Shown: positions 7,442 through 13,760, numbered from the stretch's first letter. The stretch is DNA of 64,000 nucleotides from Promethearchaeota archaeon (GCA_019058445.1 JAHPZA010000001.1:96001-160000), one strand, 5' to 3'. Numbers and translations are program-made. The notes: generated from the sequence alone by a model not told the origin.

Positions 7442-8023
7442 ATGGGAAGAAGAAAGAGAAAACAACAAACCTATAAAAGAGTAAAAAGAGTCCCCAAAAT
7501 CTTTAATTGTCCAAATTGCGGGGAAAAGTCTGTAAAAGTGGAAAACATTAGGAAATCAGCAATAGCAACTGTAAAATGTGGTTATTGTGGATTAACTAAA
7601 GATGTCTTAGTGAATTCTATATCAGAACCTGTCGATGCGTTTGGTGATTTTATCGACATTTATTATGCAGATCAGGAGCTTTTAAGATTAGAAAAACGTG
7701 TTGACAAACTAAAAAGTGAGAAAGAATGGGCAGATTTAGCCTTTTGTTATTCTGTATTATCTGACATATGTAAAGCTAAAGCAGCTGAATCGTTAGAAGA
7801 TGATGAAAATGTTGATATAGAGGAGGCTAACAAATGGAAGATAAGGGCAGAGGAATATAAAAGAAAGGAGAAGGATGCTTTATTGACATTAGACACAAGT
7901 GAATTAGAGAGTGGTATTAAAACTGATGATGAGTCATTATTTACCGAGCACGATGAAAGTTCAATGAAAAAAGAGAAAAAGATTGAGGATATTTTCGACG
8001 ACCCAGGCTTTCTTGAGTTTTAG
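7442..8023 (+). CDS. elf1: transcription elongation factor Elf1 with long C-terminal extension
   Basis: MGRRKRK..PKIFNCPNCG..CGYCG..EPVDAFGDFID Elf1 signature; AAGGAG RBS upstream. Confidence 0.88.
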   Translation: MGRRKRKQQTYKRVKRVPKIFNCPNCGEKSVKVENIRKSAIATVKCGYCGLTKDVLVNSISEPVDAFGDFIDIYYADQELLRLEKRVDKLKSEKEWADLAFCYSVLSDICKAKAAESLEDDENVDIEEANKWKIRAEEYKRKEKDALLTLDTSELESGIKTDDESLFTEHDESSMKKEKKIEDIFDDPGFLEF

Positions 8024-8116: not shown

Positions 8117-9853
8117 TTAAGAATTATAGCCCCGTATTTTATTTTTAACACTTGAGGGAATATGAGTCCAAATAGGCAATTTTAAGACAAAATTAAAGAA
8201 TTGGTTAGGACTCATATTTTCATGCTTAATAAAATGGCTCCAATTATAATAAGCTAAATTATTGAAAAGATTCATCAGGTTTACTCCCATAGGATTATAT
8301 TTTGATGAAAAAAATCTAGCTAAATAACTTCCGATACGATTTGTCTGGGGGCTTGATTCCGGATACACTGATTCTGCCAATGGTCTGTTGAAGATTTCAT
8401 AAATAGAAATAATAGGAATGAGTTTATCCAACAATTCGTTTATTTTTGCACCATAGCTATCATCATCCAAAGAGAGAGAACTTAATTCGTTCAATTTTCT
8501 GACAGCATAGCGATAATGTCTCTCTTTGAAATATAGCCACATTTTAGCCATTTGATCCCGTAGTTCTTTAATTGATTCAATCACTTCAGCATCTTTAAAA
8601 TTAAATCCTTGTAATTTTTCGAATCTTTTAATAAAAGTCAATAATATTGAGTTTGTAGATTCTTGATCAAAATCGTCTTCACTCTCATCCTTACTTAAAA
8701 GCTTGTATTTTAACTCCTTTTCAGTAGGGGTATGTATTGTGTGTGTAAATAATGGTGTTGTCCATAAGTATTCCCGGAGTTTTTCCATTAATTTTATCGT
8801 TTGGCCATAGTTTTTAATAACCGTAAATTGTATTGATAAATACTTATCTGGGATTACTTGTTCTATGAAATACCTTATTTTATCTTTAATTTTTAAATAT
8901 TTTACTACGTTCTTCTTTTTTTTCTTGAGAGCAGAGACTTTTCTACTTAATAACTTATCAAGATTCATCAATTTTTCGATATATGAATAGAAATCTATAT
9001 CATACTTTTGAATAATGTTAGTATGTGATATTAAGGGAGTCTTTAATACTTGTGGTGAGGATGAGTCAAGAGCTATCTTGTCAACACTCATCGCATGATC
9101 TCCAATGGTATATGAAAAGATCACATTTTCAAGCGCTTCTTCTAGTGAAGCAAATTTTCCTAAGTAGTTTGGAACGCCCGTAAAAACTCCATGTAATAAG
9201 GTATTAATTCCTTTGAAAGTATCATTATCATATTCTGAAATAATAACTGATTCAAATTCTCCCGGATGATGTCTTTTCGATTTGATTTTCTTGTTAACAA
9301 GCACAATGGCTTGATTCGCTTTATGGCATACAGTATAGCTCCATTTTAAAAATGGTTGTATATATTTTACCATATTAAGATGATAGTTATAAAATTCGGG
9401 TCCGAAATAGATTGGAAATCCAAAACCTCGTGAAGTAGCAAAGATAAACTGAAATACATTTCTTGTTTTCTCTCCTTTTAGTAGCCCTGGAAATTTAAAG
9501 TGTAACACAATTTTAGGGTATAGCGCAGCTAACCCTAAGTTCATCCAAGCTTCAAACAGAATAATACTATCAGGAAATCTAAATGAATCTCTTTTACTTA
9601 AAAAATCATCACTTAACGTATTAAGAGCTATTGGGATGGTAAAGAGCCAATCTCCTTTTTTTCTAATAGTTGTTAATCCTTCTTTAAACTTTTTAAAGAT
9701 GAGCGGTTGGATTTGTTTTTGTATTTCACTTTTTTTATGATAATAGTTATTCATTACTCGAAACAAAGAGAGCATTTCAAGTATCTGCCTTTGAGAATTA
9801 TGGGCTACCTTTACATGAGAGCTTTTTTCCAATTTAAGTGTAGAATTCTGCAC
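8117..9853 (-). CDS. hypothetical protein
   Basis: 578-aa ORF, no recognised motif. Confidence 0.7.
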   Translation of the reverse strand: MQNSTLKLEKSSHVKVAHNSQRQILEMLSLFRVMNNYYHKKSEIQKQIQPLIFKKFKEGLTTIRKKGDWLFTIPIALNTLSDDFLSKRDSFRFPDSIILFEAWMNLGLAALYPKIVLHFKFPGLLKGEKTRNVFQFIFATSRGFGFPIYFGPEFYNYHLNMVKYIQPFLKWSYTVCHKANQAIVLVNKKIKSKRHHPGEFESVIISEYDNDTFKGINTLLHGVFTGVPNYLGKFASLEEALENVIFSYTIGDHAMSVDKIALDSSSPQVLKTPLISHTNIIQKYDIDFYSYIEKLMNLDKLLSRKVSALKKKKKNVVKYLKIKDKIRYFIEQVIPDKYLSIQFTVIKNYGQTIKLMEKLREYLWTTPLFTHTIHTPTEKELKYKLLSKDESEDDFDQESTNSILLTFIKRFEKLQGFNFKDAEVIESIKELRDQMAKMWLYFKERHYRYAVRKLNELSSLSLDDDSYGAKINELLDKLIPIISIYEIFNRPLAESVYPESSPQTNRIGSYLARFFSSKYNPMGVNLMNLFNNLAYYNWSHFIKHENMSPNQFFNFVLKLPIWTHIPSSVKNKIRGYNS

Positions 9854-10028: not shown

Positions 10029-10490
10029 CTACTTCTTCCGCTTTGCGAAAAGCTGCTTCAACTCACCCATGATTGCCCCACGTAGGCTTTGAGGGCTTGC
10101 GGGTCGGCTAGGTCCGGGTGGTGGGCCTCCAGGGGGACCTCCGGGTGGACCTCCAGGGGGAGGTGGTGGACCTCCAGGGGGACCTCCGGGTGGACCTCCA
10201 GGGGGACCTCCAATAGAAGGTGCTATAGGTGCTACAGGCGCAGCGCCAGGAGAAGCTGGAGCTGCCACACCTCTAGTTTTTATAGCATTTAAATCGTTCG
10301 TCATCGTGTTAACTCTAGATTGTAGACTTGAAATTTGTGTTTTTAAATCAGCTAAAGATCCATCAACAAGGTCAGGTATTCGTAAAACAATTGTCATTAT
10401 TTTTTCAACAATGTCCCCAAACGCATTTACTTTTTCTTCTATTGGGGATTTCTTGGCTTTATCAAGGAAGCTTGCAAATTCTTCGGCTAT
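10029..10490 (-). CDS. coiled-coil + polyproline (GPPG)n + WH2-like helix protein
   Basis: Frame stays open 31 codons upstream of the track ATG (10397) to an ATA at 10490 preceded by GGTGA; GPPG repeats, PPPPP, C-terminal LRGAIMGELKQLFAKRKK. Confidence 0.7.
   Translation of the reverse strand: MAEEFASFLDKAKKSPIEEKVNAFGDIVEKIMTIVLRIPDLVDGSLADLKTQISSLQSRVNTMTNDLNAIKTRGVAAPASPGAAPVAPIAPSIGGPPGGPPGGPPGGPPPPPGGPPGGPPGGPPPGPSRPASPQSLRGAIMGELKQLFAKRKK
10110..10211. repeat. GC-rich 12-bp coding tandem repeat (GGACCTCC[A/G]GG[G/T]) encoding GPPG
   Basis: Visible tandem units inside the proline-rich ORF. Confidence 0.85.
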
Positions 10491-10648
10491 GGCTAATCAC
10501 CAATAATTTTTGTTAATAATTACATTTTGAAAGATTATTTTTTCTAATAATTATATAATAGTTTTGTTTAATAAAAATATGTTTTGATGCAAACTTACCT
10601 TATACCTTGAAAAATAAGAGTAGAAAAAAAGTATAATATATATAGGAC

Positions 10649-11269
10649 TTAACTCATCTCAGTGGTTGAATCCTTTAGTTTTAACCATAAATCGTCAAGT
10701 TCGTCTTGCATTTGAACAAATTGTTCAATTTCTTTAAGTAAAATATTTCTGGCCCTATCGAAATCTCTTTGTAAATCATTTAACTCGTTTTCAAGCATAG
10801 TAAGTTTACTTCCCTCAATCATTTTATTTTTAGTTTTTTCTATGCTTAAAGCTTTTTTAATTACGCCTGATCTCCTGCCGGCAATAGTAGTAAGAGCTTC
10901 TGCAAATAAATCTCCCCTAGTTGCTAAATCATCTTTTCGAATAGCTAGATCTTTGATTGAGTTAACAAAATCATTGCTTGCTTCAATATATTTATCATTT
11001 TTGTGGATAAAATCTTGATAGTAATTTATTTCATCATCTTTTACATTTGATTTTGATTCTCTTGCAAGGGTTTGCATTTGTTTTAACACATCTCTAAATG
11101 TTCGATTAAGCAATTGCCGGGCGATATTTAATTTCGCAATATTGTCTGCAAGTTTTTTATGAGAATCAGAAACTGTTCTCTGTAATCTTGCGACTTTTTT
11201 AAGATGGGAAGCTAAATCTTTTTCCATTTTCGCAAGATCTAATTCATCTTCATGGGTTATAATTGGCAT
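10649..11269 (-). CDS. all-helical coiled-coil protein, BAR/IMD-like size
   Basis: 206 aa of continuous amphipathic helices, no Pro after residue 2. Confidence 0.55.
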   Translation of the reverse strand: MPIITHEDELDLAKMEKDLASHLKKVARLQRTVSDSHKKLADNIAKLNIARQLLNRTFRDVLKQMQTLARESKSNVKDDEINYYQDFIHKNDKYIEASNDFVNSIKDLAIRKDDLATRGDLFAEALTTIAGRRSGVIKKALSIEKTKNKMIEGSKLTMLENELNDLQRDFDRARNILLKEIEQFVQMQDELDDLWLKLKDSTTEMS

Positions 11270-13610: not shown

Positions 13611-13760
13611 TTATCCCTCTCCTAAAGCCTGCTTAACCTTCTCTAATTCTTCCATACGCTTCCTTTTTTCCTCTTCTCGCTTTTTCATCTCTGCTTCGTC
13701 TGGCTTAGCTAGAGATACTCCTTTCTTAATTTCATTTTCAAGCTCTTTATCTATTGGCAT
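13611..13760 (-). CDS. unannotated 49-aa microprotein, WH2-like N-terminus + charged helix
   Basis: MPIDKELENEIKKGVSLAKPDEAEMKKREEEKRKRMEELEKVKQALGEG*; ATG preceded by AAGGTG; GC higher than flanks; T-rich tract after stop. Confidence 0.75.
   Translation of the reverse strand: MPIDKELENEIKKGVSLAKPDEAEMKKREEEKRKRMEELEKVKQALGEG

Follow-up and report, generated by a model that had tools for sequence, protein, structure and literature searches.

A widespread Asgard-specific protein with a helical stalk, a proline-rich arm and a conserved end helix, homologous to the tails of Rag/Arf-like GTPases

The gene and its start codon

The DNA considered here is a stretch of 64,000 nucleotides from the genome of a Promethearchaeota archaeon (GCA_019058445.1, JAHPZA010000001.1:96001-160000); we refer to this whole stretch as the window and count positions from its first letter. 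The subject of this analysis is a single gene on the minus strand of the window, at 10029..10490, which encodes a protein of 153 amino acids followed by a stop codon (10029-10031, minus strand), and to which homologues of 141–157 amino acids can be aligned with a coverage of 97–99%. A first-pass annotation, made from the sequence of the window, had placed a protein with a coiled coil, polyproline and a WH2-like end in this interval, and both the translation and the start positions of the orthologues confirm that the interval holds exactly one minus-strand coding sequence (CDS).

The first codon of this CDS is ATA (10488-10490, minus strand), and orthologues have ATG at the same position. Indeed, orthologous proteins start with M-A-E-E-F or M-C-A-E-E-F exactly at the ATA-GCC-GAA-GAA-TTT of the window. 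An in-frame TGA (10497-10499) is found 9 nt upstream of the ATA codon, and a Shine-Dalgarno-like GGTGAT site (10496-10501, minus strand), which overlaps this TGA, lies 5 nt upstream of it. The combination of ATA, TGA and GGTGAT is common to the window gene and four other, independent assemblies of the same clade, and the ATA recurs in contigs of one further sample and one further study; ATG is present in 82 orthologues, whose upstream purine runs are weaker than the GGTGAT of the ATA-start genes. Initiation at ATA would thus be the simplest reading of the gene start, and because the orthologue starts, the TGA and the GGTGAT site all fit ATA, we take 10029-10490 as the true CDS. A standard open reading frame (ORF) caller starts at the ATG at 10397 and returns only a form of 122 amino acids; throughout the ATA-start clade, automatic calls are either truncated (111–122 amino acids) or wrongly extended (170–186 amino acids), because the start codon is non-canonical. 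The gene is nonetheless real and single-copy, and it is a core gene of its order, present in 64 of the 64 genomes of that order with a completeness of at least 95%.

Organization of the encoded protein

The protein was modelled with AlphaFold2 (AF2) from a 65-sequence alignment, and the model comprises helices at residues 2–14 and 17–72 (predicted local distance difference test, pLDDT, 90–97), a disordered segment at residues 73–132, and a last helix at residues 133–152. Each of the three elements that had been read from the sequence beforehand is recovered in this model: the N-terminal helical or coiled-coil region corresponds to the first two helices, the Gly/Pro repeats with PPPPP to the disordered arm, and the terminal amphipathic helix with its basic tail to the last helix, which is also the most conserved part of the protein.

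The N-terminal stalk falls into two parts. Residues 2–43 (10362..10487, minus strand), delimited by invariant columns and by the AF2 model, begin with a short helix and an S/A-P turn and extend to the middle of the long helix; many positions in the first 43 residues are invariant, and the motif AEEF..F..P.EEK..FG..E..M..L.I.DL. summarizes this conserved part. Residues 44–72 (10275..10361, minus strand) form a variable heptad coiled coil with a core rich in N/Q/S (pLDDT 93–97). When the family profile was compared with the PDB, the top matches were mainly trimeric coiled coils (autotransporter adhesins, coronavirus HR1, Lpp and P22 gp26, with E values from 4e-6 to 1e-2), and a weak match to LPP is the sole Pfam signal of the window protein. 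A Foldseek search with the AF2 model gave no match, and VIA-align with the same model returned generic long helices only (Z ≤6.2), in alignments that never included the end helix.

The stalk is followed by a disordered arm rich in Pro, Gly and Ala (residues 73–132; 10095..10274, minus strand), in which (GGPP)n repeats accompany a PPPPP core and AF2 predicts no structure (pLDDT 50–65). The DNA of this linker has a GC content of 58–63%, against about 30% for the genome, and contains tandem repeats (10117-10212, minus strand) with TRF periods of 12, 24 and 45 nt. The length of the linker varies among homologues around a near-invariant PPPPPGG core, and GPPPPPG is nearly invariant in Lokiarchaeia; runs of at least four prolines are encoded by 14 of the 4,855 ORFs of at least 100 amino acids in the window's genome. 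The linker is also polymorphic in length (window 10117-10238): one in-frame 45-nt repeat unit (10126-10170) is missing from a contig of a second sample in the same study, and 9 nt at 10219, again in frame, are missing from a contig of another study. The retention of the layout in more than 200 homologues, the scarcity of such proline runs and the in-frame length changes speak against a chance arrangement.

The protein ends in a helix with a basic tail (residues 133–153; 10032..10094, minus strand; SLRGAIMGELKQLFAKRKK), which is invariant in close homologues and modelled as helical over residues 133–152 with a pLDDT of about 90. Within the close set, R-P-A-x-P-x-S-L-R-G-A-I-M-G-E-L-K-x-L-F-x-K-R is almost invariant, and the segments S-L-R-G-A-I, E-L-K and L-F are invariant. 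Distant relatives (30–45% identity) retain the pattern R..phi..ELK.phiF.[KR][RKM], and across the free-standing family E143 is invariant and L144 and K145 are at least 90% conserved. The first-pass annotation had proposed a homologue search in Asgard genomes and had allowed that the C-terminal helix might prove not to be conserved; the search shows it to be conserved.

Distribution and a long form in Heimdallarchaeaceae

More than 200 homologues have the same layout, all of them annotated as 'hypothetical' and without a Pfam family. A profile built from Lokiarchaeial members only has a match in 129 of the 251 genomes of the phylum, mostly in single copy, including those of Ca. Lokiarchaeum ossiferum, Promethearchaeum syntrophicum, and Ca. 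Harpocratesius; a broader profile adds a full-length homologue in one family that was missed by the Loki profile, as well as partial matches in others. The free-standing protein is also found in Odin-, Thor-like and Heimdall lineages, and one of the matched families includes a genome that we take to be Odinarchaeum. Neither Pfam nor NCBIfam has a family for the window protein, no source names it, and the ESM Atlas returns uncharacterised Promethearchaeota and Thorarchaeota clusters only, none belonging to a named family.

A long form of 280–320 amino acids occurs in 27 of 31 Heimdallarchaeaceae genomes, including Ca. Heimdallarchaeum aukensis (CP084166) and H. endolithica. The N-terminal stalk of this form matches the Loki family (hhalign 87%). 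Its linker carries one to three motifs of the type 'short helix + L[QKT]K[AV]' (LKKV in 4 of 13 cases, LTKV or LTKI in 9 of 13). Also present there are GAPNLSAAP repeats, a helix (ALNMEVKDALAKR) and the acidic stretch DDDEDEEDF, and the protein terminates in the family end helix, in this case the acidic ALQGELRDAF.

The same module at the end of Rag/Arf-like GTPases

An exhaustive search of representatives recovered proteins of 399–464 amino acids that end in the whole stalk-arm-helix module, ahead of which Pfam identifies a helix-hairpin-helix (HhH) motif and an Arf/Gtr1_RagA G domain. Comparison of the free-standing family with 82 of these GTPases by hhalign gave a probability of 99.0% (E 3.8e-18) over 116 aligned columns, with positions 5–140 of the former set against 298–419 of the latter, and the conserved N-terminal part of the free-standing protein aligned with the start of the GTPase tail. 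By this profile comparison, the window protein is shown to be homologous over its whole length to the C-terminal tail of HhH + RagA/Arf-like GTPases. In these Asgard GTPases (about 405–430 amino acids, annotated as 'ADP-ribosylation factor-like protein'), as in the window protein, a conserved helix is followed by a coiled coil, a low-complexity linker and an end helix of the form ..R..phi phi.ELK.LF.K[KR]. The end helix is kept in the tails, and the linker is polyproline in some of them and wholly different in others; thus, whereas the window linker is a regular (GGPP)n/PPPPP sequence, many tails have non-proline linkers. The window gene itself is free-standing: it is flanked by stops and encodes neither an HhH motif nor a small-GTPase domain.

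The window's genome encodes four tail-bearing GTPases of 415–428 amino acids, three of them in tandem on contig C10 (C10:626911-631029) and the fourth on the same contig (C10:674713-675963). Two of these four genes start at TTG/GTG, and only one of the four proteins has a polyproline linker. Within 15 residues of a C-terminus, the end motif ELK.[LIFAV][FL].[KR][RKM] occurs in this genome in the window gene, in the four GTPases and in one 54-amino-acid ORF, the last of which is probably spurious. Among solved structures, that of the homotetrameric RagA-like GTPase 8YL2 from Lokiarchaeota comes closest to the G domain; in a HMMER alignment, the segment behind the G domain of 8YL2 pairs with the first stalk segment of a GTPase tail from the window's genome.

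The GTPase tail is undescribed in the literature that we searched. Full-length tail-bearing GTPases were found in the window's family and in P. syntrophicum only, and from these restricted finds the free-standing form emerges as by far the more widespread of the two. The analysis firmly establishes a new, Asgard-only universal module, which exists as a free-standing protein and, in Lokiarchaeia, also as the tail of Rag/Arf-like GTPases.

A multivalent adaptor with tethered helices as the preferred reading

The reading that we favour, tentatively, is that the window protein acts as a small, Asgard-specific multivalent adaptor with tethered helices, in which the end helix would dock on a conserved, putative protein partner. 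The stalk would oligomerise, likely as a parallel trimer, so that each particle would present several arms. At the tip of each arm, the hydrophobic residues of the end helix (I/V, M/L, L, L, F) would line up as a stripe, with a conserved Arg and a Lys/Arg as caps and the invariant Glu and a Lys on its flanks, and this stripe would fit into a groove of the putative partner. The same putative partner would be addressed by the GTPases, which carry the tail in cis. The arm would set reach and avidity, and in Lokiarchaeia its GPPPPPG core may constitute a second site, for proline recognition.

Four points weigh against this proposal. The AF2 model describes a single chain and is silent on whether the end helix docks. 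The stalk probably oligomerises, likely as a parallel trimer, on the strength of sequence likeness only. The end helix of Lokiarchaeia is basic enough to pass a lipid-binding discriminant. Finally, among the genomes tested, those of L. ossiferum, Harpocratesius and the Odin, Thor-like and Heimdall lineages yielded no full-length tail-bearing GTPase; in L. ossiferum and in the Odin, Thor-like and Heimdall lineages, the free-standing protein must therefore work without such GTPases.

The gene is of interest as a core, single-copy, Asgard-only gene of simple design; this design recurs on Rag/Arf-like GTPases of Lokiarchaeia, and the end helix and polyproline arm resemble the part of VASP that binds actin. 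Cells of Asgard archaea crawl and form dynamic, actin-based protrusions. The actin regulators known in these organisms are profilins and gelsolins only, and no formin, no Ena/VASP-type polymerase and no WASP-kind nucleator or elongator has been found in them (10.1101/2025.11.30.690169). How Asgard small GTPases without lipid anchors are targeted is likewise an open question (PMC10933270). Knowledge of the partner would either supply the archaeal actin system with its first assembly factor or explain how the GTPases are addressed, and both outcomes bear on eukaryogenesis.

Actin as a candidate partner

The first-pass annotation had interpreted the protein as a possible archaeal promoter of actin assembly. 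Spelled out, this reading holds that the stalk clusters the arms, that GPPPPP recruits profilin-actin or another proline reader, and that the end helix binds Lokiactin, such that filaments are nucleated or elongated. We consider it unlikely, though the likeliest of the alternatives.

WH2 motifs begin with an amphipathic helix of the R-x-x-L-L-x-x-I type. The R-G-A-I-M-G-E-L of the end helix, which is invariant in close homologues, has the same helix spacing (R-x-x-I-M-x-x-L), and the resemblance to the WH2 motif (PF02205) of WASP/WAVE/WIP/thymosin-type proteins includes an Arg three residues before a hydrophobic pair, another hydrophobic residue three positions on, and a location after polyproline. 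However, the window helix has roughly double the length of a WH2 helix, and the protein ends in ..LFAKRKK, with KRKK where WH2 has LKK[TV]—that is, Leu, two basic residues, and Thr or Val, according to the definition quoted in PMC9433394; within the family, LKKV or LTKV/LTKI is confined to the Heimdallarchaeaceae form. Moreover, the Pfam WH2 profile gave no match to the window protein at E ≤0.1 or to the Heimdall long form and its motif block at E ≤10, and no WH2, WASP or VASP chain was retrieved when three profiles, of the whole family, of the Heimdall form and of its motif block, were searched against the PDB. In Asgard archaea, WH2-like motifs have so far been described within gelsolins (PMC9433394). 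Of the proposed WH2 likeness, therefore, the R-x-x-phi-phi-x-x-phi spacing stands, while the Pfam match and the LKK[TV] motif are missing, and VASP provides the better comparison.

The F-actin-binding (FAB) helix of human VASP (PMC10340426) aligns with the end helix without gaps, with 6 of 16 residues identical and 6 more similar. Scored against the position-specific scoring matrix (PSSM) of the family, in the register A-I-M-G-E-L-K-Q-L-F-A-K-R, it reaches 8.45 bits, in a match too short to prove kinship. This score is attained by just 2.2e-5 of the 1.4 million 15-mer windows of the genome; at 2e-5 per window, however, many recurrences of a 15-residue match are to be expected in a whole proteome, and this one is notable only because it lies behind a GPPPPP tract in a presumably oligomeric protein. 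Ena/VASP proteins, too, have an oligomerising coiled coil and a short, basic amphipathic helix that is preceded by GPPPPP-type tracts. In contrast to their C-terminal, tetrameric coil, however, the coil of the window protein is N-terminal and looks trimeric, and the window protein has neither an EVH1 domain nor a G-actin-binding (GAB)/LKKV motif; no Pfam match to WH1 or VASP_tetra was found for it that would indicate homology to Ena/VASP. The likeness to VASP/WASP-type factors appears real at the motif level, and actin would be a candidate partner of low probability.

The stalk and the arm add further points in favour of actin. The coiled coil is likely trimeric, the GPPPPPG core is nearly invariant in Lokiarchaeia, and polyproline is rare in the genome. 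Brk1/HSPC300 and CCDC53, small coiled-coil subunits of the WAVE and WASH complexes, are likewise built as one long helix with a trimeric precursor form: Brk1 (3PP5) superposes on the stalk with a root-mean-square deviation of 1.5 Å over 63 residues (Z 5.6), and sub-threshold Pfam matches of the N-terminal stalk to the WASH subunit CCDC53 were obtained (5e-4 for the Heimdall form; 5 of 65 members). Kinship with CCDC53 or Brk1 was nonetheless rejected, since the Pfam matches are below the cut-off, more members match unrelated coiled-coil families, and the structural match is tied with those of dozens of unrelated coiled coils.

The window's genome encodes candidate partners, with two strong Lokiactin genes, further actin-family genes, and gelsolin-domain proteins, as well as a weak profilin match below the cutoff. 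In-frame TAA stop codons occur in two of this genome's six actin-family matches (two in C10:653495-654577 and one in C9:593898-595019), which may represent pseudogenes, split genes or assembly errors. Against a role of the arm in recruiting profilin, it has been reported that VASP polyproline is no ligand of Loki or Odin profilins (PMC8410842). The same helix, moreover, ends the GTPase tails, in which the linker is often without polyproline; this sharing of the module with GTPases opens the alternative of a non-actin partner, which the first-pass annotation had itself entertained. Nor does any actin, profilin or gelsolin gene lie near the window gene or its orthologues in any lineage examined.

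Co-precipitation data from L. ossiferum also lend no support to an actin partner. The 'Arf' that co-precipitates with Lokiactin is a GTPase of 329 amino acids (38.12 kDa) without the stalk-arm-helix tail. The orthologue of the window gene in this organism (CP104013:2,628,799-2,629,257; 16.14 kDa) has the predicted tag GNAMCCOK_02059, for which GNAMCCOK_02062 (34.84 kDa) served as an anchor; this tag is absent among the rows listed of the proteome and co-immunoprecipitation (co-IP) table, which is weak evidence. As for the co-precipitating GTPase, GNAMCCOK_04696 (38.1 kDa), the Lokiactin-enriched 'Arf GTPase' of a 2025 preprint, corresponds by mass and position to the 329-amino-acid Arf-like G-domain protein encoded at about 5.472 Mb of CP104013; it carries a long C-terminal extension and is not a canonical 20-kDa Arf.

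Of the actin-promoter reading, then, the layout of oligomerising helix, polyproline and basic end helix survives, while WH2 membership does not, and synteny and co-IP lend no support. The broadest version of the idea takes in the Heimdallarchaeaceae long form, in which L[KTQ]K[VA] motifs, a further helix and an acidic stretch follow one another in an order similar to that of WH2-C-A elements, a likeness that no profile search backs. In this version, the family would be the missing Asgard actin-filament assembly factor, an analogue or even a forerunner of Ena/VASP/WASP-type proteins, equipped with a trimeric stalk, a Lokiactin-binding end helix and, in Heimdall lineages, a WH2-C-A-like elaboration, with the GTPases coupling switching to actin; we judge this to be rather improbable, too.

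Membrane anchoring and other alternatives

Alternatively, the end helix could serve as an in-plane amphipathic membrane anchor and the Pro-rich arm as a hypervariable linker, with the GTPases using the helix in cis and the free-standing protein forming a tethered oligomeric scaffold. This possibility we likewise regard as doubtful, although for Lokiarchaeia it makes physical sense. The end motif may resemble terminal helices of the MinD/FtsA type. By a HeliQuest-type discriminant with cut-offs of >0.68 or >1.34, the window helix scores 1.97 (net charge +5, muH 0.34), and the medians of 1.33 for the free-standing proteins and 1.16 for the fused ones fall in the 'possible to likely lipid-binding' range. 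The hydrophobic moment, however, is only moderate; several members have acidic tails, the net charge of the helix is low or negative in some fused proteins, and every Heimdall end helix stays below 0.68, with a net charge of about -2. An invariant Glu, a near-invariant Lys and near-identity across classes are, in addition, unusual for membrane-targeting helices. The invariant E143, the conserved L144 and K145 and the net-negative Heimdall helices thus favour a protein groove, as proposed for the adaptor, over an anionic membrane. In support of membrane anchoring, Asgard Rab-like GTPases lack prenylatable C-termini, and their membrane targeting is unsettled (PMC10933270); if true, this reading would answer how anchor-less Asgard GTPases reach membranes.

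A further proposal, which we hold to be improbable, treats the free-standing protein as a stalk-mediated regulator that co-assembles with the HhH + Rag/Arf-like GTPases and either tunes their valency or competes for the site of the end helix. It would account for the homology to the GTPase tails over the whole length, for the co-occurrence of the free-standing gene and tail-bearing GTPases in the window's genome and in P. syntrophicum, and for the alignment of the first stalk segment of the own-genome tail with the post-G-domain segment of the homotetramer 8YL2. Yet L. ossiferum and the Odin, Thor-like and Heimdall genomes have the free-standing gene but yielded no full-length tail-bearing GTPase, and in the window's genome the tail-bearing GTPases are located on another contig and do not adjoin the window gene.

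Least probable is a relative or mimic of terminal-peptide systems, either an ESCRT-III-like MIT-interacting motif (MIM) helix for the MIT domain of Vps4 or a P1/P2-like stalk that recruits GTPases. The MIM1 consensus is (D/E)xxLxxRLxxL(K/R), with a central Arg. The hydrophobic spacing phi-x-x-x-L-x-x-L of the end helix fits it, but the position of the conserved Arg is occupied by the invariant Glu and the last basic position by Phe; furthermore, the N-terminal part is not an ESCRT-III hairpin in the AF2 model, and no Snf7 match was found in Pfam. The MIM1/MIT reading, one of the non-actin options that had been suggested beforehand, was rejected on account of this Glu in place of Arg. The aP1/P1-P2 ribosomal stalk is similar in architecture, with an oligomerising N-domain, an Ala/Pro/Gly hinge and a C-terminal helix that docks on partners in several copies, and ribosomal protein P2 is the best PDB match of the Heimdall profile (E 0.02). 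Despite this match, homology to the ribosomal stalk was rejected: hhalign against the lineage's own aP1 alignment gave probabilities of 1.6% and 0.4%, PF00428 matches only the canonical aP1 (C6:1024892-1025140) in the own genome, and aP1 ends in GLGALFG, unlike the ELK.LF.KR of the window protein.

Genomic neighbourhood

In the window's order, the gene belongs to a run that comprises Pelota, a radical SAM gene, a gene for a 206-amino-acid helical protein and the window gene, followed by a gene for a 578-amino-acid protein of no assigned family or by Elf1. The upstream gene differs in other lineages and encodes phosphoglucomutase in the Thor-like family, a VTT-domain protein in Odin and housekeeping proteins in Heimdall; among the loci examined, no neighbours are conserved between different classes. 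Small GTPases are found nearby in some lineages, yet they are abundant in these genomes.

The 206-amino-acid protein, encoded directly upstream (window 10649-11269, minus strand), appears all-helical, has no Pfam family and gave no match in a PDB sequence search. It adjoins the family gene in six loci of the order (five of the window's own family and one of a sister family), and not in L. ossiferum, P. syntrophicum or Harpocratesius. The 578-amino-acid protein (window 8117-9853, minus strand), which has no Pfam or NCBIfam match, lies downstream in four of the five loci of the own family that were examined. The Elf1-type zinc-ribbon protein (193–243 amino acids; window 7442-8023, plus strand) carries a long acidic or coiled C-terminal extension. 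Its gene lies at most two genes from the family gene in eight of nine Lokiarchaeia loci examined; in L. ossiferum, P. syntrophicum and Harpocratesius, it immediately precedes the family gene in the same orientation. Behind the Pelota gene, a Lys/Glu-rich ORF of 49 amino acids is located at window 13611-13760 (minus strand).

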